Origin: a virus
Taxonomy: Duplodnaviria > Caudoviricetes
DNA length: 51,601 nt
IMG/VR virus record: IMGVR_UViG_3300032265_000046
Location: 1-51,601 of that record
Direction: 5' to 3' (one strand)
In this document: positions 217-48,853 of the stretch, in pieces
How the letters are laid out: every line of letters starts with the position of its first letter
How positions within the stretch are numbered: position 1 is the first letter of the stretch
Translations under genes and position numbers: made by a program
Notes under the pieces: generated by a model
Told to the model about the DNA's origin: nothing
Database searches by the model: none
What the model saw: the letters and a program-made list of their open reading frames with translations, nothing else

Positions 217-334
217 GTTCTTCAACGTCGTTTATCTCTTCGTCCAACTGTACGTCAGCACCGCCATCAGCGTTGTTTTTAATCCCGTTTATGAATCTAT
301 CAAACTCTGGATCATTGGGCATTTCAGTTGCCAT
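1..334 (-). CDS. Portal protein, N-terminal part (continues across the junction into 51385..49209)
   Basis: ATG at 334 with AAGGA SD 6 nt upstream; MATEMPNDPEF...AIVRLGEDKGP joins in frame to the 788-aa ORF, giving 836 aa. Confidence 0.85.
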   Translation of the reverse strand, partial: MATEMPNDPEFDRFINGIKNNADGGADVQLDEEINDVEELEDGSAIVRLGEDKGPEEDAEFYENLAEEAVNLYDLDKVGMRYIDLIEKDKEARKNRDKQYEEGLKRTGLGN

Positions 335-3300
335 ACATATTCCTTAAAAAATTATTTGAGTCTTCATAACTTAAAACTTGTCCACCCTTGGCGTAAAAAC
401 TATGCGGAATGATGTTCTCACCATCCGTTACGTCAGGCGTTGTGTCGCTCATATTGACCACACCTCCGCCAGCCATCTTGCGATGGTGATTGTTTAGGGC
501 ATCTAGCCATGACATTTGTTCCACAGAGCCTCCGTCTTTATGACCTTCTTTTTGAAGGTTGGTTAAATAGTCTTCGCTTACAAATTGCTTGGGCGTTGTT
601 GCCGTCAAGTCTTTGTGACCCATCGGTTGGGGATTGCCTGCCTTGTTCTTACGATTTGCATATTTAGCCACAAAGTCAGGCGCGGCAAACTCAACAGGGG
701 CTGGCTCAAACAACAAGCCAAGGTCAGTGCCAGTCACTTGATGTGGGAATGCCGCATTGAGATCAGGGCGATAGATGCCCGTGTCGCTATCAATAGTGAA
801 CAGGCGATTGCCTACAGCGTATGTAGGCGAGTTGGCTAACAATGGGTCAGTCTCTTCTCTAATAATCTTGAACGCTTCTTGCGTTGCCTTTTCGCCCCGC
901 TTCTCTCCGCCCATCGTCATAGCCTGCGCTAACACTTTGCGTTGGTCAAATGTCTTAGCCTTATCCAATACGGTTGGGTCGCTGACATCAATGCCTTCAG
1001 GAAATATTAATTTGCCAGACTTTGGGTGAACAGCACCGTTGACCTGCGCATTCATTTTGTCAATTAAGTCAGCAGAAGGGTTAGCCGCTCTATGCGCCTC
1101 ATACATACGCTCAACAGTCACTGGGTTACTCATGTGCTGAGTTGGTGAACCAACAAAGGTTGACCAAACAGTGTCTGGAGTATTGGCATTTATTAGGCGA
1201 GTGGCGTGGCTAGGTTTACCTACGCCCCAAGTCGTACCCGCTTTCTGGTGTGGTTTGCTAGTTAACTGCAAGCCAGAGAAACCTGTCCCACCTTTGTTGG
1301 GGCCGAACACTCGGGATCGATCAGCCTGCGTTAGGTTGAGAGTCATGCCTTCAGCGCCAGCATTACCCAAAGCCTCAGACATACGCATAATGTCTTTAGG
1401 ATTCATTGGATCAGCAAAGTCAACGCTTGGTACACCCAACCCGCGAGCGCGAAGTGCGGCTTCCTCTGCCTTGCTGAGTTTGGTTCCAGCCTTGCCTAGT
1501 TTGGCTAACGCGCTGAGTCCGCCAACCTGCATATGGATAGCGCCACCTTCTGCCATGCCTTCTGGTGGTGGCGGAAATCCATATTGCTCATGCATAAATT
1601 TAGGGTCTGCCTTGGACCTAGTTAAATTTAAGTAGTCGTATATAAGTTTTTCGTGTTCTGCGTCGGTTAAATATTCTGGAACATTCATGCCAGCATCGGC
1701 AAAACTTGCACGTTCAGGAACACTTTCAATATGTTTTAAACCAGTGTTTTGCAAATCACCAACTTCTGTATATTTACCGCTCTTTACAAAGTCTTGGATG
1801 TAAGGCAAATACTCTTTGTTTGGAGCGGCGTTCTGTTTACCTTTGATTTGAGTAATATATTGGGGCATATTGCCAATTTTTTCTTTATAAATGTCATCAA
1901 TGTGTTTATATAAATCGTTTGATGCCTGTGCTCTTTGTTCGCTGTTTGCGTTTTGAACCCACTCTTTTTGATTTTCTGGAGTGATGCCCATTCTTCGCTT
2001 TGCCTCAACCATTGCTTCACTGTAGTCAAGCCCAGCCTTTTTAAAATTTTGTGGCGTTGCTAAATTAGTTTGATTGACTTCTATCGTTGCGTGCGACATT
2101 CCTTTTGGATCACGCAAAGAATAAATCTTAGCGGCTCCAGACTTGATTGCTTCATATCCACCATGACCGTAGTCGTTATAACCAGAGTTGCCAGAGATGT
2201 CTGTCCAATCAGGGTGACCTTGTGGGGGTTCGTATCCACGAACAGAATGACCCATGATGTCAGACTCCAGCGCAAACTGCCCCGGCTGGTCTAACTGCAC
2301 CCACTTGTATCCTTCAGGATATTCTTTGTGAACCTTAGCGCTTGTCTGCTCTGCAACTCTAGCATTGAGCATCTTTTGCTTGAGTTCCTCGTCATACTGA
2401 TGAGTGCGACGTACCGCGTCTTCCATACTCACCTTATTGAGTTGCTCAGGGCGGATGCGACCTGCGGCTACGTCTTCACGCAACACATCCATGATGTGGT
2501 CAAAACCCATCTTGCTAAAGTCAGCATCTGTATTCAGGGAATAGATGTTTGTCTCTGGGTCTAATTTATTTACCCACGGCATATCTGCTGTGTTTCCAAC
2601 TGGTCTCTGCATACTTGGTAAAGCCTGTATGCGTTGATAGTGTTTAGCCGCAATTGGGCTGATTGCTTGGTCAGCCAAAAACTCATAATGCTTTGCCAAA
2701 GGGTTTTGGGCTACGCCCTTAACAGGCGAACCAAATTCTTCTCGTCTTCCTTTGACATCAAAGTTGGGAAATGTATGCAACTCCAAGTCACCATATTCAT
2801 CCACGTTTTTAGGGAAAGCGGTGATGCCCTCCTCAGCCAACTTGCGCACTGGGTCAGCCTCAGTACCCATTTGCTTAGTGATGTAGTTGCTAAGGTTCGA
2901 TTTAACCCATTTGTTGGTGGCTTCGTTACCAATTGCATTTTGCAAATCTCTGGTAAATCCTGCTACTTGGGGCGCGTCTCCTCTTGCAACTGCATCCTCA
3001 AGCATTTCCTTGATGTATTGACTATTAGGATTGTGTTTACCCTTTTGAAGATTTTCTAACTCGCGGTCAAGTTGTGTTCTGTACACGATGCGGTCAGTAG
3101 ATGGCAACCAATTGCCATCAGTCGGTTTGACAATGTGCATTACTGGTGGGTTGGCAAGGGATGCAGGCACGCCGGGGATTAGGGACTGACCCGTTGCAAT
3201 CCTATGTCCAGCAGTCTCTGCCAACTCTTTACCTAAAGTTTTAGCACCTTTATAAGCAGAGCCAAGCGCATGAAAGCCCGAGCCGGGGCCAGTGTAGAAC

Positions 3301-4412
3301 GAGCCACCCAACTGTCCCAACCCAGTAGCCGCACGACTCACTGGCGTATCCGACTTAAATGGCAGGCGCTTCTCAATCTCTTCGCTGGTCGGCAGGATAG
3401 TCTTCTCATCTAGATACGGCAACATACGAATGAGGGACTCTAGGTCACCCAACTGTCCTAGCGCTCCAGCCACAAACCCTCTTGCCGCATCGACAGGCAC
3501 ATTCTTTGAAGCCTCGCGGTCTTGGTGCGCACGCCTTGGCTTCATCTGTGGCATCACGCCAAACGCCGCTCCACCATCTGCAAATCTTGAGAGTCCGCCT
3601 TGGATTGAACCGCCGTCGGCATATATGTCTGGCAAATCAACTCGCGGACGTTTGATATCTTCTTGCCTGAGATTATCAAAATAGACTTGTGGTCTGACTT
3701 TGTTATTGGTCATCTCAAGTTCTTGTTTGAGAGCCTCTATATATTCTTCTTGCGTACGTCTAGGTAAGGGTTCACGCAACTCACGCCTTGGCAACAATTG
3801 CACAAGATTGCTTTGCTCTCCCATATTCGCTATGGCGCGGTTTCTATGCCGACCTTCATGCCCAGTGATAAACGGAACCAGTGGCAATCCCTGTTCTTCC
3901 TTATTGATAAGCAAATATGGAACGTCAGCAAATCCGCCTTTTACATTTGATAGGCTATCAATGTACTCAGACAACGTCATGTCTTTCATTGAGTCATCAA
4001 GGAACTGGCTTCCATATCCGCGATGCGCCTGCGGACTACTCATGTAGTCTGGAATAGGCGTTGCATACTTTTCAAAGTCTTGCGGTTTTATTGTCATCAT
4101 TGCGGCGGCATTGTCTCCAGTAAACGCATCCGCTAACGCATCGTGGGTGTACATCCTCTCAAGGTTCGGTATCTCATCAGCCGCACGCTCGACACGCCTT
4201 GCGCCGTAGTTGCCCTTTATGTTGCGCACCGCTTCTCTGACGTTGTTCAGTTTACCGGGGACAACAATGCCCGGGGCTGGCAAATTGATACGCGCAGTTG
4301 GCATCATGTCAATGCGCATTTGCTTTTCCGCTTGCGATGCCAGCGCTTTTTGCCAAGACGACTCGTTTGAGAGACTGGTCAATCCTTTAGCAAGTTTGGA
4401 GTAGTTAGGCAT
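324..4412 (-). CDS. Large multi-module (polyvalent-type) protein with ParB/Srx-like and PcfJ-like segments
   Basis: 1362 aa; TGHEGRHR resembles the ParB/Srx G-x-H-R motif; ESDIMGHSVRGY...IYSLRD..G.SHATIE...QIKGKQNAAP resembles PcfJ-like domains; modules are bounded by xAxGG motifs. Confidence 0.6.
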   Translation of the reverse strand: MPNYSKLAKGLTSLSNESSWQKALASQAEKQMRIDMMPTARINLPAPGIVVPGKLNNVREAVRNIKGNYGARRVERAADEIPNLERMYTHDALADAFTGDNAAAMMTIKPQDFEKYATPIPDYMSSPQAHRGYGSQFLDDSMKDMTLSEYIDSLSNVKGGFADVPYLLINKEEQGLPLVPFITGHEGRHRNRAIANMGEQSNLVQLLPRRELREPLPRRTQEEYIEALKQELEMTNNKVRPQVYFDNLRQEDIKRPRVDLPDIYADGGSIQGGLSRFADGGAAFGVMPQMKPRRAHQDREASKNVPVDAARGFVAGALGQLGDLESLIRMLPYLDEKTILPTSEEIEKRLPFKSDTPVSRAATGLGQLGGSFYTGPGSGFHALGSAYKGAKTLGKELAETAGHRIATGQSLIPGVPASLANPPVMHIVKPTDGNWLPSTDRIVYRTQLDRELENLQKGKHNPNSQYIKEMLEDAVARGDAPQVAGFTRDLQNAIGNEATNKWVKSNLSNYITKQMGTEADPVRKLAEEGITAFPKNVDEYGDLELHTFPNFDVKGRREEFGSPVKGVAQNPLAKHYEFLADQAISPIAAKHYQRIQALPSMQRPVGNTADMPWVNKLDPETNIYSLNTDADFSKMGFDHIMDVLREDVAAGRIRPEQLNKVSMEDAVRRTHQYDEELKQKMLNARVAEQTSAKVHKEYPEGYKWVQLDQPGQFALESDIMGHSVRGYEPPQGHPDWTDISGNSGYNDYGHGGYEAIKSGAAKIYSLRDPKGMSHATIEVNQTNLATPQNFKKAGLDYSEAMVEAKRRMGITPENQKEWVQNANSEQRAQASNDLYKHIDDIYKEKIGNMPQYITQIKGKQNAAPNKEYLPYIQDFVKSGKYTEVGDLQNTGLKHIESVPERASFADAGMNVPEYLTDAEHEKLIYDYLNLTRSKADPKFMHEQYGFPPPPEGMAEGGAIHMQVGGLSALAKLGKAGTKLSKAEEAALRARGLGVPSVDFADPMNPKDIMRMSEALGNAGAEGMTLNLTQADRSRVFGPNKGGTGFSGLQLTSKPHQKAGTTWGVGKPSHATRLINANTPDTVWSTFVGSPTQHMSNPVTVERMYEAHRAANPSADLIDKMNAQVNGAVHPKSGKLIFPEGIDVSDPTVLDKAKTFDQRKVLAQAMTMGGEKRGEKATQEAFKIIREETDPLLANSPTYAVGNRLFTIDSDTGIYRPDLNAAFPHQVTGTDLGLLFEPAPVEFAAPDFVAKYANRKNKAGNPQPMGHKDLTATTPKQFVSEDYLTNLQKEGHKDGGSVEQMSWLDALNNHHRKMAGGGVVNMSDTTPDVTDGENIIPHSFYAKGGQVLSYEDSNNFLRNMYGN

Positions 4413-4414
4413 AG

Positions 4415-5833
4415 TTACACCGCATATGGGTTGACCCGCGCAGGTTGGGCATCGAAGTAATCGTCGTCGTCGTCATCATACCGAGGTTCAGGGTCAATGT
4501 CGAGCCAGCCCATGTCTTTTAACCAACGCATCGCCTGAGTCGCTGAGTCCACATAGTCATCATGCTGTGAGTCAGGGAAGGCGCATATCTGGGACAGGAA
4601 CCCTTCAGCCCAATCCTTCACATAGCCCTTATGCACCTCGGACTCTGGGAGCCAGACACGCTTGGCAACAAAGATAGCCGCAGTAATCTGTAGGCGTTGC
4701 ATCTTGTCAGCCCGACCGGGGTTATATCCCCGCACCATCAAGTGCGCCTTCTGCAACTCTTGAATCAGAGACAGACCCGCCGCCTTCTCCTCCACCAGTA
4801 TCAGGTCAGGGCGCTTGGCATCTCTGCCTTCACCGTAAGACACTCGCCACTCGTCCTGCGCCCGCTCCTTGAGTTTAGGGAAGGTGAGGTGTTCTGCCCA
4901 GCAGTCAATCAGGAGCACGGACATCGGGCCGTCCTGTGGCTTGAACACTCCCCACGTTGTCATCGCCGTCGGGTCGTTGTAAGACTTGTCGGTGTAGGCG
5001 CAGTCATAGGACTGGATGATGTACTCGAACTTAGGGAAGGGCTTACCAGCAGGCCACATCTTGAACATATCCCTGCTCACCACCTTGCCGTCTTCGAGGT
5101 CTACCACCTCGCCGAGCACCTCCTGCTGATACAACTTCGTACCCTTGTACTGCTCAAGTTGCTTGCTGAAGGTAGCCGCTAAGTTGGCTTTGTTCTCGTA
5201 GGTGCTGGCGCGATCAATGATTACGTCGTCACCCTCACGGCTTATCAGGTCAAGGATTAAATCCTTTGGGCGCGGTGTCGTGGTCACAATCACACGAGGT
5301 TGGTCGCCCAGACGCAAACCCATCATCATCATGTCCCACGCCTCACCAGCGCCGAGGTATTGGAATGCCGCCAACTCGTCCGCCCAGCACCAATGGAACT
5401 GCGGGCCGCGTAGTCGCTCATAGGAGTCAGCGCTAATGCCACGAATGCTCGATCCATTGGACAACGTAATCTCGTGGTCTTGTTTGTTGTACTTAGCCAC
5501 CAATTCAGGAGGGATGTTAGCGAGCAGTCCTGACTTGCCCTCGAAGCAGGTGAACTTGATGTCGTTAGATGTTGGAGCCAACACCAGCCCACGGGAGCCG
5601 GGGTGCGTCCAACACCACCACCAAAGCGCATGGCTACCAGCATGGGACTTGCCCGCGCCCCTGCCTGCAATCAAAGCCCACACCGTCCAATCCAACTCCA
5701 ACGGCGGAGGTATCTGGTACTTGTGGGCGCTCGCCACCCACTCAAGGTGAGCGATTAACGCAATGCGGTCGTGCTCTGGCTTGGCGTTGAACTCCGCCTG
5801 AACTTCTGGGTCTTCGAGTAGTTCTGTTAACAC
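4415..5833 (-). CDS. terL: Terminase large subunit
   Basis: Walker A AGRGAGKS, Walker B WCWADE, VTTTP motif III, RNase H-like nuclease (SYDCA...HDDYVDS). Confidence 0.95.
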   Translation of the reverse strand: MLTELLEDPEVQAEFNAKPEHDRIALIAHLEWVASAHKYQIPPPLELDWTVWALIAGRGAGKSHAGSHALWWWCWTHPGSRGLVLAPTSNDIKFTCFEGKSGLLANIPPELVAKYNKQDHEITLSNGSSIRGISADSYERLRGPQFHWCWADELAAFQYLGAGEAWDMMMMGLRLGDQPRVIVTTTPRPKDLILDLISREGDDVIIDRASTYENKANLAATFSKQLEQYKGTKLYQQEVLGEVVDLEDGKVVSRDMFKMWPAGKPFPKFEYIIQSYDCAYTDKSYNDPTAMTTWGVFKPQDGPMSVLLIDCWAEHLTFPKLKERAQDEWRVSYGEGRDAKRPDLILVEEKAAGLSLIQELQKAHLMVRGYNPGRADKMQRLQITAAIFVAKRVWLPESEVHKGYVKDWAEGFLSQICAFPDSQHDDYVDSATQAMRWLKDMGWLDIDPEPRYDDDDDDYFDAQPARVNPYAV

Positions 5834-5909
5834 AAGTATTACCTAGAACCCAAACAAGGGATAAAACCCCGTGTTTTTCGACACCAAGCAGAAGTATTTG
5901 TAATACTTT

Positions 5910-6494
5910 TTAGCCAGCACGTTTAGTCATCTCGATGTTTTTAACGATCTCTGTAAACCTGTCTATGCTTTTGTTTTCAGTGGCGATAGGCGCTCCACCC
6001 ACTACGCCCTCAACAGCAAAGCGGTCGCCGTACTTGCGTGGCTTGAGTTTCGCCGCCGTCCACTTGCGTGCCTCTATGCGACTCCTCTGCCAGTTGATGT
6101 AGGTTGCGTCCAGCGTAGTGCGACCGTCTTTGTCGGTGTACTCAGGAGGGTGCTCATCAGCGATCTGGAGGATTTCGTCAGCGTTAGTGTCAGCCTGATC
6201 CTCTCGTGCGCGTGCGTACATATCGCAGAAGATTGGGAAGCGAGCCAACCAACGATAGATTGTTGCGACGTGCGGTAGGTGGTCGTCCTTGCACATTTGC
6301 ACTAATGGCTCACCGTGAGTGAGTCTCCAGCATATCTCGTCTGCTATAGCGTCTGTGAACTCTACTGGTCTACCAATGGGGACTTGTTTTGCGGGGTCTG
6401 GAGCCTTTGCGGGCGCGGTAGCACCCTTTGCCTGTGTCTTAGGCTTTAATGGCTTAACGGGGCGTTTTGTCCCCTTCTTGGCGGTTTCTGGCAT
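5910..6494 (-). CDS. terS: Terminase small subunit
   Basis: GRP.EFT..IADEIC..L..GE.L...C....P...TIYRWL HTH and ARKW.AAKL.PRKYGD; directly upstream of terL; start moved to ATG 6494 (AAGGGA SD). Confidence 0.85.
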   Translation of the reverse strand: MPETAKKGTKRPVKPLKPKTQAKGATAPAKAPDPAKQVPIGRPVEFTDAIADEICWRLTHGEPLVQMCKDDHLPHVATIYRWLARFPIFCDMYARAREDQADTNADEILQIADEHPPEYTDKDGRTTLDATYINWQRSRIEARKWTAAKLKPRKYGDRFAVEGVVGGAPIATENKSIDRFTEIVKNIEMTKRAG

Positions 6495-6529
6495 GACCCG
6501 TATTCCCTTCGGTTTGATTGATTGTCGCC

Positions 6530-6559
6530 AGTGTATCAAACCTTTATGGTTTTCGCCAA
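6530..6559 (-). promoter_or_regulatory. Putative sigma70-type promoter for terS/late genes
   Basis: TTGGCG-18 bp-TACACT with extended -10 TG; the same TGATACACT occurs at 14299-14307. Confidence 0.4.
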
Positions 6560-6816
6560 TAGGTTGTTGGTGGATGTTTGGGTTTCAGGCTTACAACACA
6601 AGTCCCGCACATGGCAGTTCCCCGTTACATCGGGTGGCCTTACCTCCACCAACACGGCTGGGGACTGTTACCGATCTTTCACGGAGCCGTAAACAGCATT
6701 TACAACAGTCCTCATGCGTGATGGCTCCGAGTCGCCCTCCCTCGGATGCTTTGTCCCGAATTCCACGGGCTTGGCCTACTTCACCTATATAAAGATTACA
6801 GACCTCCGAAAACCAT
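6546..6816 (-). ncRNA. Candidate multibranched structured RNA (strand inferred from flanking genes)
   Basis: Nested inverted repeats: 6546-55/6807-16 (10 bp), 6559-64/6783-88, 6565-74/6645-54 (10 bp), 6659-69/6704-14, 6726-31/6741-46, 6755-58/6766-69. Confidence 0.6.
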
Positions 6817-6826
6817 TGTGAAACCA

Positions 6827-7045
6827 TTAAGGTTTCTTAACTCCTTCACACAAGTCCCCGACGTAGGCTTTTGGCTTTTGCTGAACACATTCCTGCTCAG
6901 TCAAATTAAAGTCTGGAACCCACGCCAAAAGAAACACAACCAACAAAACCATTATAGCAATTCCAACCTTTTCAAACAAGGTTTCTTCTGGTATTTGCTG
7001 GCTCGGGAGATGACTCATCATCTCGTCTATTTCCTGCTTGTTCAT
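6827..7045 (-). CDS. Small membrane hypothetical protein
   Basis: 72 aa, one hydrophobic helix, ATGA overlap with the upstream gene. Confidence 0.7.
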   Translation of the reverse strand: MNKQEIDEMMSHLPSQQIPEETLFEKVGIAIMVLLVVFLLAWVPDFNLTEQECVQQKPKAYVGDLCEGVKKP

Positions 7046-7245
7046 GCCTCTTCCTCCTCTGGTACTGGGACGTTATCAACGACGCACTGCAATGCGTGAA
7101 TCATCTGACGTGCCTGCTCAAAAGTCAAGGTGACGTGAGCACCACCACCCTTTACATGAATAGACAACCAGACCTCGTCGTCGTGCTTATCAGTAAATAC
7201 CACCTCACCTCTTTCGGTGGTTTCAATTCTGGTTTGGAAATTCAT
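7042..7245 (-). CDS. Hypothetical protein
   Basis: 67 aa, AAGGA SD, packed in operon. Confidence 0.7.
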   Translation of the reverse strand: MNFQTRIETTERGEVVFTDKHDDEVWLSIHVKGGGAHVTLTFEQARQMIHALQCVVDNVPVPEEEEA

Positions 7246-7246
7246 T

Positions 7247-7462
7247 TCAATATCCTTTCACTGAACGCGGAAGGTTTTCAAACCAATCATCGTGATGGTC
7301 TTGCCATGCGTTTTCAGCATCACTACGGTTAGGAAAATTTATTTCCTCAACTTGAGTTTGGGTATGGTAGAAACCAAAACCATTAGCATTCTCAAATATC
7401 TCACCCAAAACTTTGCCGTAAATGGATTTGATTTCATTAATTACTGTTGCATTCGATTTCAT
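7247..7462 (-). CDS. Hypothetical protein
   Basis: 71 aa, GAAGGA SD within the shared leader motif. Confidence 0.7.
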   Translation of the reverse strand: MKSNATVINEIKSIYGKVLGEIFENANGFGFYHTQTQVEEINFPNRSDAENAWQDHHDDWFENLPRSVKGY

Positions 7463-8542: not shown

Positions 8543-8648
8543 ATTCACTGTTCCTTCACTGTTTACAACTGCACTATTGCTGTTGTTGGTTTAAGTATAT
8601 CTTAAACGAACAGCCTGTCAACAATTATTTTCTAGGTAGTTTCCCTAA
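8543..8648 (-). promoter_or_regulatory. Promoter-leader cassette copy 2
   Basis: TAGGGAAACTACCTAG box; TTGACA (8616-21)-16 bp-TATACT (8594-99); GTTTAAG-N5-CTTAAAC palindrome; ACAGTGAAGGAACAGTGAATATG. Confidence 0.85.
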
Positions 8649-9114
8649 GTGCCAAAAGTTTTTCAATCAACTTGTCTTCGCGCCATTCATTAGCCCACTT
8701 ACGATGTTTTTCAGCCTCTTCCTTTTGCTTACGTTGCTCTATTGGGCATCGGTCAATGAAGGGATACAGTCGATCACTACGAGATGGGTGTCTTAATTTA
8801 CGGAGCGCTCTAGCCTCAATCTGGCGTACTCGCTCTTTGGACACTCGAAAGAAGACCCCAACATCGTGAAGGGTGCGGTCGTCCCAAAATCGAAACCAAA
8901 GGCAAGCCTTTTCTTTATCGGTCAGTTGTTCCAAAGTTTTTGGAATCAAGCGTTCTAAATCAATTTTGTTGTCAATGTCATCGGACTCTAAAGCCATCCA
9001 CGGTGGAAGGCGCTTAAACACCTCCTGCTCTGGCTCTTCATGGCGACTACGCCAGAGTTTGCCTACCTCTGGGTGAAAGTCTGCCAGCCGGCCTTCAGGG
9101 GTTATCCTGCGCAT
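8632..9114 (-). CDS. Stand-alone sigma70 region 4-like HTH protein
   Basis: RTLHDVGVFFRVSKERVRQIEARALRKLRHPSRSDRL closely matches RpoD region 4.2; no region 2 present. Confidence 0.85.
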   Translation of the reverse strand: MRRITPEGRLADFHPEVGKLWRSRHEEPEQEVFKRLPPWMALESDDIDNKIDLERLIPKTLEQLTDKEKACLWFRFWDDRTLHDVGVFFRVSKERVRQIEARALRKLRHPSRSDRLYPFIDRCPIEQRKQKEEAEKHRKWANEWREDKLIEKLLALRETT

Positions 9115-47439: not shown

Positions 47440-48434
47440 CTCCTATTACCGTTGTTTTGACGTGCTTCTTTAGCATAACGAGCGACCATTCGCGCTCTCT
47501 TCTCGGGATCGTCCCACATACCCGCATCTTTCATAGCCCTAACCTGATCTGGGTTTAGGGTAAAGGTATTTCTACCACCACTACTCGACACTGCTTCGCG
47601 TCCCGAACTCGTCACAACATTACGGGGTCTCCGTTGAGTTGGTTTCTCATTCGCGTTATCAGTATAACGGTGTGGTAGGTACTTTTGCAAGCGATTGTCA
47701 AGTTCTTCCCAAAATTCTGCTGTTTGGGGTGAATAACCATCTTCTGCAAGAGCCGCGTCTATGGTTAAAGCAATCTTGGAATCAGAATCTTTGCCTCTAG
47801 GGTCATACCAAGAATTGTTTGACATCCATTGGTTAGCAAAATTCTGCACCGCAGGATCAGGCGCTTGAATTGTGGGTTGTGGGCGTTGTGAAGTGGCTTT
47901 TTTCTTGATATTCTCAAGAGCCTCTGCATTTCTACGCGCATCAAACCACATTTCCTGAGCATTCGTAGCCAAAGCACCGTTTCCAGTGGCAGTAGCCTCT
48001 TCCATTTTGGATTTAGCAAACTGAATCTTGGAATACTCGTTCTCAATTGCCTTATTTATTCGGGCAACCTCAGAACCGTGCGTCTTTTTCTCCAAAACTG
48101 CCATGCGCTCAAGCAATTCTTGGTTTTGGCGCTCCAAATGATTGATTTTTACGCTTTTCTCTTGCTCGACATTGCGGTGATACTCTTTGCGGGAGCGTCT
48201 TTTTTGACGTTTTGCCTCACGCATCGCTTCTGCATCAGCATCTACCTCACCACCAGATGCCATTTCTGCACGTCTGGCTCGATCATCAGCCTCGTCAGAG
48301 TCTTCGTGCTCTGAGTCTGCTTGTACGTCAGGGGATGGAATACTTTCTGGCAATTCAATCGTTGCGGAACCGTCCACCTCCTCTTGAATTGTGATTACTT
48401 CTGGCTTTTCAGCCGTAATTTGTTCGGTACTCAT
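47436..48434 (-). CDS. Putative scaffolding protein
   Basis: Acidic N-terminus, long coiled coil, W...N.WY, position in the head module. Confidence 0.65.
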   Translation of the reverse strand: MSTEQITAEKPEVITIQEEVDGSATIELPESIPSPDVQADSEHEDSDEADDRARRAEMASGGEVDADAEAMREAKRQKRRSRKEYHRNVEQEKSVKINHLERQNQELLERMAVLEKKTHGSEVARINKAIENEYSKIQFAKSKMEEATATGNGALATNAQEMWFDARRNAEALENIKKKATSQRPQPTIQAPDPAVQNFANQWMSNNSWYDPRGKDSDSKIALTIDAALAEDGYSPQTAEFWEELDNRLQKYLPHRYTDNANEKPTQRRPRNVVTSSGREAVSSSGGRNTFTLNPDQVRAMKDAGMWDDPEKRARMVARYAKEARQNNGNRS

Positions 48435-48853
48435 ATGAATGCCCTCACTTCAAGCGGATTACCTGTTACTTTAGCAATAACTTCGTGGTCATTCATAATC
48501 ATAAACTCCACTTGTTCGTCATCTCCGTGCTTGACAGTCCAGCGGTCGCCAGTCCATCGTGGTACGCGAAGAAAATCGCCTATTTCACACCAACTGCCCT
48601 CAACCCAAGGCTCCATTGAATCGCGCTTCTTGAACGCGAGGGGGCCAATCGCCACGACTCGACCAATTGGGTTTTGCGCCCGCTCGGTGTCTCGTGTTTC
48701 TTCAGGCAGGATAATTCCCGATTCGGTCATTCTTTTTTTGGCTATTCTCATTTGTACAAGTACACGAGCGCCTAATGGAATCGCACCGGGGTCTACAAGA
48801 GGAAACGACTCCTCTATATCAGCGGCATTACCCGCTACCGTGCTGTTACTCAT
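48431..48853 (-). CDS. groES: Phage-encoded GroES-like co-chaperonin
   Basis: PLGARVLV, TESGIILP mobile loop, GRVVAIGP, GD.., IMND.EVIA. Confidence 0.9.
   Translation of the reverse strand: MSNSTVAGNAADIEESFPLVDPGAIPLGARVLVQMRIAKKRMTESGIILPEETRDTERAQNPIGRVVAIGPLAFKKRDSMEPWVEGSWCEIGDFLRVPRWTGDRWTVKHGDDEQVEFMIMNDHEVIAKVTGNPLEVRAFI

Follow-up and report, generated by a model that had tools for sequence, protein, structure and literature searches.

A string of structured RNA modules upstream of terS in a complete phage genome appears to belong to a widespread family linked to phage tRNA genes

RNAs C and D of phage T4 are encoded together with the phage tRNA genes, and GOLLD and ROOL are large ornate phage-borne RNAs which often adjoin tRNA genes and whose function is unclear. 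The put sites of HK022 and the nut sites of lambda are short conserved transcript hairpins, found behind promoters or between genes, which act on the transcribing polymerase, while the RNase III hairpins of the T7 early genes and the tRNA "punctuation" of organelles are structured intergenic elements whose cleavage separates mRNAs. T4 RNAs C and D (rnaC and rnaD) are described as small RNAs with a function that is still unknown (PMC9697503). The YrlA RNA of Mycobacterium smegmatis is reported to contain a tRNA-like module with a 7-bp stem, which is cleaved by RNase P and receives an added CCA (PMC4201824), polycistrons of irregular tRNA-like sequences are reported from metatranscriptomes (PMC5389517), and a survey of IMG/VR lists 10,006 candidate structured RNAs (PMC10690425), which may include the motif described here. 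In this study we analysed a 51.6-kb virus record from IMG/VR which is rated complete (IMGVR_UViG_3300032265_000046, 51,601 nt; the whole record is called the window below), and describe an array of structured elements in its gap between terS and a gene of 72 amino acids (aa). We found no description of the motif in the literature; as far as we found, the array family is undescribed and has no Rfam family.

The array occupies the gap of 332-336 nt between the 72-aa gene and terS, at the junction of small early/regulatory genes and terS-terL, and is read on the minus strand, which carries 50 of the 60 non-overlapping open reading frames (ORFs) picked in the window. On sequence comparison, positions 6559-6810 (minus) appear to hold three independent structured-RNA modules in a row rather than a single closed RNA. 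We estimate the probability that this array is a real, transcribed member of a structured-RNA family at about 85%. The family seems to be widespread among phages, with lake phages apparently carrying swappable units beside tRNA genes. The modules are, in the order of transcription:

6721-6810, minus strand: module 1 (arm 1), with hairpins at 6773-6804, 6755-6769 (CCCG/CGGG) and 6724-6749 (UCCGAG-GGAGGGCGA-CUCGGA).
6653-6720, minus strand: module 2 (arm 2), with outer helix Pa (CACG 6717-6720 / CGUG 6653-6656) followed by a 2x2 internal loop, CA/GC.
6706-6714 with 6659-6667, minus strand: helix Pb of module 2, UGAGGACUG / CAGUCCCCA, with one A·C mismatch.
6559-6653, minus strand: module 3 (arm 3), with the acceptor-like closing stem GUUGGUGGA (6645-6653) / UCCACCAAC (6566-6574).

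The strongest evidence comes from frame 1, the conserved part of module 2, which has the consensus CACG-CA-UGGGGAUUG ... CAGUCCCCA-GC-CGUG. Inside this frame module 2 has a window-specific hairpin, of which blastn-short against the motif and related loci found no homologue. The frame-1 copy of the window scores 49.1 bits and is the only copy in the genome, the next match reaching 10.7 bits (the window is itself a row of the seed alignment). The 18-mer AGTCCCCAGCCGTGTTGG had at least 120 exact matches in IMG/VR, and its partner ACACGCATGGGGATTG lay nearly always 40-120 nt upstream of it. A second scan of IMG/VR, in which the helix was left free except for a purine/pyrimidine constraint, again gave at least 120 contigs with frame 1. 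Among the matches listed, we took 230 unique frame-1 units for which only the flanks served as definition (≤ 1 mismatch over their 19 bases), with no pairing filter. Helix Pb was paired in 2031 of 2070 cells (98.1%) of these units, compared to 1935.7 ± 4.0 cells (93.5%, maximum 1949) when the 3' strands were permuted, and where both sides had changed the pair was preserved in 75 cells and broken in 15. G·U cells numbered 274 vs 17 A·C cells, an excess which assigns the fold to the sense strand. A covariation test with a counting tool was run on the cleanly aligned units with ≤ 84 nt, 124 in number: 96.4% of cells were paired and there were 55 double-change cells vs 12.1 ± 2.8, with none of 500 shuffles as high, whereas at most 49.6% of cells paired in controls with the partners slid by 1-3 columns. 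The compensated Pb variants include UGAGGA/UCCUCA (15 units), UGGAGA/UCUCCA (5 units), UGAAGA/UCUUCA (3 units) and UGGGGG/CCCCCA (3 + 2 units). The frame-1 helix is real and strand-specific.

Outside viral contigs the 18-mer is scarce. In 185,579 species genomes (596 Gb) it had 14 matches, compared to approximately 17 expected by chance according to our own arithmetic, and 11 of these lacked the partner strand; the 3 true instances were in two Burkholderiales contigs and one Flavobacterium contig from metagenome-assembled genomes, all ≤ 2.3 kb. A blastn search of window positions 5800-7300 against GenBank phages gave no match, and a 45-nt query against GenBank (E up to 10) gave one true instance, the uncultured phage MW202484.1, and one chance match. 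Matches to AATGGTTTC with ≤ 1 mismatch were mildly enriched (29 vs 18.0 ± 3.6), but the sites were scattered and this candidate was set aside.

Module 3 belongs to frame 2, with a consensus of an acceptor-like 7-bp stem, GUUGGUG ... CACCAAC, then AACCUA. In the window the closing stem surrounds two conserved hairpins and the family tail, AACCUAU, lies at 6559-6565. A gapped pattern search found 8 further distinct homologues of this module (compared over 6562-6653), after 3 of its 14 matches (L267, L268 and L275) had been dropped as unrelated sequence; blastn-short of the arm-3 interior of the window against related loci gave no match. In the homologues, the inner hairpin changes from CCCG/CGGG to CCUG/CAGG and a G-C pair of the closing stem becomes A-U. 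A solitary module 3 was found in three loci (L271, L272 and L273), 6-7 nt behind the -10-like hexamers TAAACT, TATACT or TACACT. CCAAC was found 30-330 nt after GUUGG in 139 of 169 units, and pairing beyond GUUGG/CCAAC averaged 2.44 of 4 vs 2.04 ± 0.05 with permuted partners; a greedy search for arm-3 partners in which G·U was allowed performed no better than its shuffled control. All 7 closing pairs were present in 147 of 197 unique arm-3 modules, for which the tail consensus was AACCUAYA. Three arm-3 modules exceeded the Rfam tRNA gathering score of 29 bits (L063, 49.1 bits; L152, 40.9 bits; L150, 35.4 bits), with inserts of 83 nt replacing the anticodon arm in L152 and 48 nt in the D loop in L150.

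Module 1 ends in GCCAU immediately before module 2. It has homologues in L004, L007, L101, L059, L115 and L083 and partial ones in L211 and L142. The alignment of 7 sequences has three hairpins with 22 predicted pairs, 4 of which show compensatory changes, and the fold of the window's module 1 matches the consensus fold. Among the helices of a first-pass annotation of this region, compensatory changes were found in relatives in the base of arm 2, in arm 3 and in the hairpins of arm 1.

The modules are combined differently in different genomes. A search with terS in IMG/VR returned 66 loci, and the gap of the window aligned over its full length with only two of them, L004 and L007 (73-74% identity). 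In L002, L003 and L005, which have terS 96-98% identical to that of the window, the similarity of the gap was limited to the terS-proximal 77 nt and two islands of ~20 nt. We aligned 14 distinct gap sequences (17 were taken, of which 3 were duplicates) and found conserved blocks alternating with unrelated inserts of variable length. The blocks are, in order: a 21-nt stop-codon block; GCCAnCACGCAUGGGGAUU; AGUCCCCAGCCGUGUUGG; CCAACAACCU; a TTGGCG-N-TACACT element; and GGGAAUACGGGUC, which is invariant, before the terS ATG. Counting flank-defined unique units, 162 locus-strands had one unit, 25 had two and 6 had three, and in L103, L142, L147 and L152 the units follow each other with the grammar ...CACCAAC-AACCUA-CACGCAUGGGG... 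Among the matches listed, 411 unique interiors formed 245 clusters, 179 of which were singletons. Five interior clusters span both frames; some cross-frame matches are artefacts of the rule used for the end of arm 3, and the pairs L079/L110, L084/L137 and L155/L240 are clean. Of 117 assessable arrays, 39 had a homologue of the window's terS within the next 700 nt downstream; other arrays follow terL or precede unrelated genes. In many arrays, among them those of L011, L116, L144, L085 and L103, the first unit comes after a hairpin which is rich in GC, is capped by a GNRA or UUCG tetraloop and is followed by GCCA or ACCA, so that it resembles a minihelix whose 3' end is tRNA-like.

We also examined the neighbourhood of the arrays for tRNA genes and transcription signals. 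ARAGORN identified 23 tRNAs in 192 motif loci (1.52 Mb), and 22 of these were within 400 nt of an array, a zone which accounts for 11.2% of the total length. The 22 tRNAs share the strand of the array without exception, and 16 of them are tRNA-Met. Arrays with a tRNA within 400 nt numbered 19 of the 192; in a separate count tRNAs were found in 10 of 42 loci. The tRNA-Met genes begin 7-9 nt past the arm-3 tail, and the CCA end of a tRNA directly abuts frame 1 in L118, L246 and MW202484.1. A -10-like hexamer was found ≤ 30 nt upstream of 28 of 53 units beginning AGACGC (without the first Pa pair), 33 of 142 beginning ACACGC and 2 of 20 beginning UCACGC, and an intrinsic-terminator-like hairpin with a U run follows the last unit in L091 and L152. 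The context of the arrays appears to be that of a tRNA operon, with head-to-tail units behind putative promoters, before putative terminators or genes, and against true tRNA genes.

Some of these loci are worthy of note in their own right. In MW202484.1 (L278, 41503-41762) a tRNA-Asn(GTT) is followed at once by a frame-1 unit, and the deposited "complete genome" annotates neither. A tRNA-Met stands straight after the array in L130, L132, L138, L144, L170, L237 and others. Several array-linked tRNA-Met genes start with CGCGG and end with CCGCA-A-CCA, giving a C1/A72 mismatch which we take to resemble the hallmark of bacterial initiator tRNA. When 15 related loci were compared to Rfam, only tRNA, a T-arm fragment of tmRNA, int-alpA and anti-hemB were matched, the last three below their gathering scores; the int-alpA match is near threshold (32.2 vs 35.8 bits), in L152 at 2554-2627 (minus), adjoining a tRNA-Asp.

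We favour the reading that the modules work through tRNA-type excision, to which we give slightly less than an even chance. It is suggested by a pattern common to both frames (U at -1 and G at +1, then 7 acceptor-like pairs, with A as the discriminator) and by the tRNA-operon grammar of the arrays. The modules would be transcribed together with the upstream early/middle genes. Host tRNA-maturation nucleases would then excise them, with RNase P cutting at the U|G that precedes every acceptor-like stem, while the 3' tails would be trimmed by RNase E, RNase Z or exonucleases, and the products would be stable small RNAs acting in trans. A further consequence of excision would be a cut of the upstream transcript at the early/late boundary, immediately ahead of the terS promoter.

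Several observations count against excision of this kind or against the statistics behind the family. The first-pass annotation held that the element is not a tRNA, and this agrees with our results: ARAGORN found 0 tRNA genes in the window, the Rfam tRNA model (RF00005) had no match to the modules (6000-7400, E up to 10), and the modules have no D arm, T arm or T-loop motif. Their 3' tails read A-ACC and A-GCC, not N-CCA. tRNA-like bodies are also rare in relatives, with a D-arm-like start in 12 of 196 unique arm-3 modules, a T-loop-like motif in 9 and ARAGORN calls in 3. The Pa helix of frame 1 is flush against the next acceptor-like stem, so that the supposed RNase P site would lack a single-stranded leader. 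Both strands of frame 1 are nearly invariant in sequence, beyond what processing needs, which implies that something reads the sequence, whether a protein, a contact with RNA or a catalytic core. The ORFs flanking the arrays are dominated by the same strand in 93 cases, by the opposite strand in 22 and are mixed in 74. It should also be noted that the frame-1 sample was fetched by the exact 18-mer or by the purine/pyrimidine-constrained pattern and is biased, and that kinship among the sequences inflates the shuffle statistics.

A more speculative extension, which we hold only tentatively and consider rather doubtful, is that the frames form a natural cassette system, in which two invariant acceptor-like holders would allow lake phages to take up, exchange, express and trim hundreds of different structured RNAs. 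The RNAs, carried in arrays resembling tRNA operons, could serve as decoys or aptamers, or as guides, directed against host functions.

The first alternative to excision is that the array is a cis-acting leader or regulatory RNA, in which the frame-1 hairpin would, like put and nut, be bound by RNA polymerase or by a factor of the phage or the host, and would control read-through, pausing or stability of the transcript that runs into terS and the late genes. The near invariance of both helix strands and of the 2x2 loop fits a binding site. Many units lie at transcript 5' ends, as the -10-like hexamers of the AGACGC class indicate; a Shine-Dalgarno-like sequence and an ATG occur ~10-30 nt past GUUGG in L184, L140 and L185; and the array of the window is at the early/late junction. 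However, up to 3 flank-defined units per array (4 under a looser, pairing-filtered definition) with unrelated interiors would be unexpected for an antiterminator, and units adjoin the CCA ends of tRNAs. In addition, both the window and its relatives have a conserved promoter-like element downstream of the array:

6530-6559, minus strand: promoter-like TTGGCG-N18-TACACT before terS, inferred from sequence.

With this element between the array and terS, terS need not rely on read-through, and no terminator-like site was found on the minus strand between the two. Both hexamers are conserved in the 14 distinct gap sequences while the spacer varies, and the element has one match in the whole window. 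A generic sigma-70 promoter scan missed it (8 of 12 consensus matches by our count). Overall we consider a cis-acting role unlikely.

The second alternative places the function in the DNA: the frames could be recombination sites for cassette shuffling (attC-like folded single-stranded DNA, or homology blocks), or the region before terS could be bound by packaging proteins or operator-binding proteins. In its favour, interiors have been swapped between near-identical phages and between the two frames, a third of the assessable arrays (39 of 117) precede a terS homologue, and the region is flanked by two palindromic boxes:

6820-6836, no strand assigned: 5' palindromic box GAAACC-TTAAT-GGTTTC, with the stop codon of the 72-aa gene (6827-6829) at its centre.
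6538-6552: 3' palindromic box, within the spacer of TTGGCG-N18-TACACT.

The shared core of these boxes, AAACC-N5-GGTTT, occurs at only two sites in the whole window, 6538-6552 and 6821-6835, which are 283 bp apart and flank the array; 0.39 sites are expected by chance and 5 of 100 shuffles had two or more. The block of the 5' box is identical in 13 distinct relatives, despite the variable coding sequence before it, and in other lineages these two positions are occupied by other repeated boxes, such as GAAAGCGAA in L265. Each palindrome is a candidate for a local fold or for a site of a dimeric protein, and the two could be operators or packaging-protein sites. For the frames themselves, however, the G·U excess favours a sense-strand fold, G·U pairs weighing more in RNA, and promoters, terminators and same-strand tRNAs suit transcription units. 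The scan of 49 ORFs of the window revealed no integrase or recombinase family, 78 of the 117 arrays are not beside this type of terS, and GTTGGTG fails positions 6-7 of what we take to be the attC core, GTTRRRY. A DNA-level element seems improbable for the array.

The first-pass annotation had described the region as one multibranched RNA of ~270 nt. When the minus strand, the strand of the flanking genes, is read, every helix that it named is found where it was placed:

6807-6816 with 6546-6555, minus strand: proposed 10-bp closing stem, ATGGTTTTCG / CGAAAACCAT.
6783-6788 with 6559-6564, minus strand: proposed 6-bp inner stem, ATAGGT / ACCTAT.
Arm 1, minus strand: hairpins CCCG/CGGG and TCCGAG/CTCGGA.
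Arm 2, minus strand: CACG-CA-TGAGGACTGTT / AACAGTCCCCA-GC-CGTG.
Arm 3, minus strand: GTTGGTGGA / TCCACCAAC with an inner CCCG/CGGG hairpin.

The closing stem is perfect, it is kept by L004, and the minimum free energy fold of 6546-6816 (minus) retains it together with arms 2 and 3, while the ATAGGT/ACCTAT stem is lost from this fold and is not conserved in the arm-1 homologues. The closing stem itself is complete in the window and L004 only; it has 9 bp in L007 and ~7 bp in L002 and is shorter or absent in other lineages, with no compensatory change in the aligned gaps of the relatives. Its two halves are better explained as half-sites of the two palindromic boxes, each of which can fold locally: the GGTTT[TC] of the 5' box recurs at 6809-6817, and the 5' half of the stem, ATGGTTTTCG, is this second copy. 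The 3' half lies inside the terS promoter-like element, as had been anticipated (CGAAAACCAT at 6546-6555 falls in the spacer of this conserved, presumed promoter), and would thus be beyond the likely end of the RNA, or 5' of the start of terS transcription. Since the three modules recur separately, in other combinations and in other genomic places, the region is not read as one closed RNA, and we regard the single long-range structure as very improbable. What stands of the earlier interpretation is a non-coding structured region which is not a tRNA and matches no Rfam family (searched over 6000-7400 at E up to 10).

Folding energy adds little to this. For 6546-6816 the z-scores of the minus and plus strands were -1.87 and -1.90, respectively, and on either strand 8 of 200 shuffles folded equally well; such values are not near zero but only modestly unusual, and weak alone. 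By module, the z-scores were -0.95, -2.74 and -1.67 (modules 1, 2 and 3) on the minus strand and +0.78, -3.01 and -0.57 on the plus strand. The region stands above chance because the base of arm 2, the stem and inner hairpin of arm 3 and the hairpins of arm 1 covary in relatives. Of the three functions that had been offered (an antitermination or late-switch RNA, a scaffold and a packaging element), a scaffold is nearest to the data, with conserved frames and many differing interiors, while only the flanking boxes, and none of the RNA modules, could have a packaging role; the observations speak neither for nor against an antitermination or late-switch RNA.

A new small self-cleaving ribozyme, with the core of the frame freeing the modules from the array, is very improbable: both helix strands and the 2x2 loop are invariant while peripheral helices are hypervariable, and the units stand in tandem, but the invariant unpaired core is just 4 nt and no Rfam ribozyme family was matched in the gap or in the 15 related loci. 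A phi29-type pRNA was rejected, as terS and terL are present, and so were CRISPR-like or ToxI-like repeats, as there are two alternating frames with long structured interiors. Finally, the ORF at 6591-6827 (78 codons, minus strand), which could be a small protein translationally coupled to the upstream gene since its conserved ATG overlaps the stop codon of that gene (TAATG), is almost certainly not a gene, because in 12 of 12 distinct relatives the frame is broken or unrelated (14, 14, 17, 31, 31, 38, 51, 60 or 106 codons from the same ATG, with unrelated sequence past residue 6); it has no Pfam match and the homologous modules differ by 1-, 2- and 4-nt indels, so the non-coding assignment made earlier holds.

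The genes around the array, in the order in which they occur on the record, are:

4415-5833, minus strand: terL.
5910-6494, minus strand: terS (Pfam Sf6_terminase, E = 1.1e-35).
6827-7045, minus strand: 72-aa gene with no Pfam family; its homologues end just 5' of the array in 16 loci.
8632-9114, minus strand: 160-aa protein with a sigma-70 region-4 as its sole domain (E = 3.2e-16).

The longest terS ORF begins at TTG 6539, but the start is probably the ATG at 6494: relatives align from residue 1 of the ATG-6494 protein, and a start at TTG 6539 would place the promoter-like element inside the gene. In the terS 5' leader (6495-6535) the string GGGAATACGGGTC abuts the ATG and is near-invariant across the 14 gaps, in which terS identity is ~63-98%; this appears to be conservation far beyond the needs of a plain ribosome-binding site. 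The product of the 72-aa gene has a single hydrophobic stretch which may be a membrane span. The sigma-70 region-4 protein is a candidate phage late regulator and possibly recognises a TGGCGAA -35-like element. Further upstream on the minus strand are genes for RusA and a RecA-dependent nuclease. Directly after terL is an ORF of 1362 aa (324-4412, minus) with no Pfam match at E up to 0.001, whose position suggests a portal fused to other head functions, and a Cpn10 (GroES-like) co-chaperonin domain is encoded at 48431-48853 (minus, E = 6.7e-09).

Phage non-coding RNAs are poorly charted, and here one short intergenic gap led to a large family: at least 230 distinct units in public viral contigs. 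The structured interiors held by their frames make up at least 245 sequence clusters, and the frames are physically linked to phage tRNA genes. If tRNA-like excision does take place, it would be a general route by which phages obtain many stable small RNAs from polycistronic transcripts, and would punctuate these transcripts as well. If the frame is instead a binding or catalytic core, it would be a new RNA motif with a very clear consensus which is readily testable. A cassette system, if true, would make the arrays modular non-coding RNA loci of a new class, possibly with a new RNA-protein or ribozyme recognition core. For annotation of these phages, long gaps adjoining terS or tRNA genes should be taken as RNA loci and not as missed genes.

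Compared to the described systems, the array shares single features with each. Like put and nut, it has short conserved RNA hairpins placed promoter-proximally or between genes in phage transcripts; however, put and nut are not known to form multi-unit arrays with unrelated interiors or to abut tRNA genes, we saw no sequence likeness to them, and here a promoter-like element separates the array from terS. As in integron attC sites, conserved imperfect inverted repeats enclose highly diverse cargo and the folded strand matters, but the cargo here is structured RNA of 40-100 nt and not genes, the 49 scanned ORFs include no integrase, and the transcription signals and tRNA linkage point to RNA. 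T7 RNase III hairpins and tRNA punctuation are likewise structured elements between the genes of a one-strand polycistronic genome; the frame-1 stem (13 bp and a loop) is presumably shorter than typical RNase III substrates. GOLLD and ROOL differ in that there is no Rfam match here and the units are small, separable and repeated. YrlA, the Y RNAs and the irregular-tRNA polycistrons are also modular non-coding RNAs with an acceptor-like stem, whereas no Ro60/TROVE protein was found among the 49 ORFs and the gap has no Rfam match; most interiors here lack D and T arms, and frame 1 has no counterpart there. Likened by description, T4 RNAs C and D are two fixed genes, in contrast to arrays of conserved frames with swappable interiors, and the window, unlike T4, has no tRNA. 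The family as a whole is tied, as they are, to phage tRNA genes, with 22 of 23 within 400 nt of an array and on its strand.

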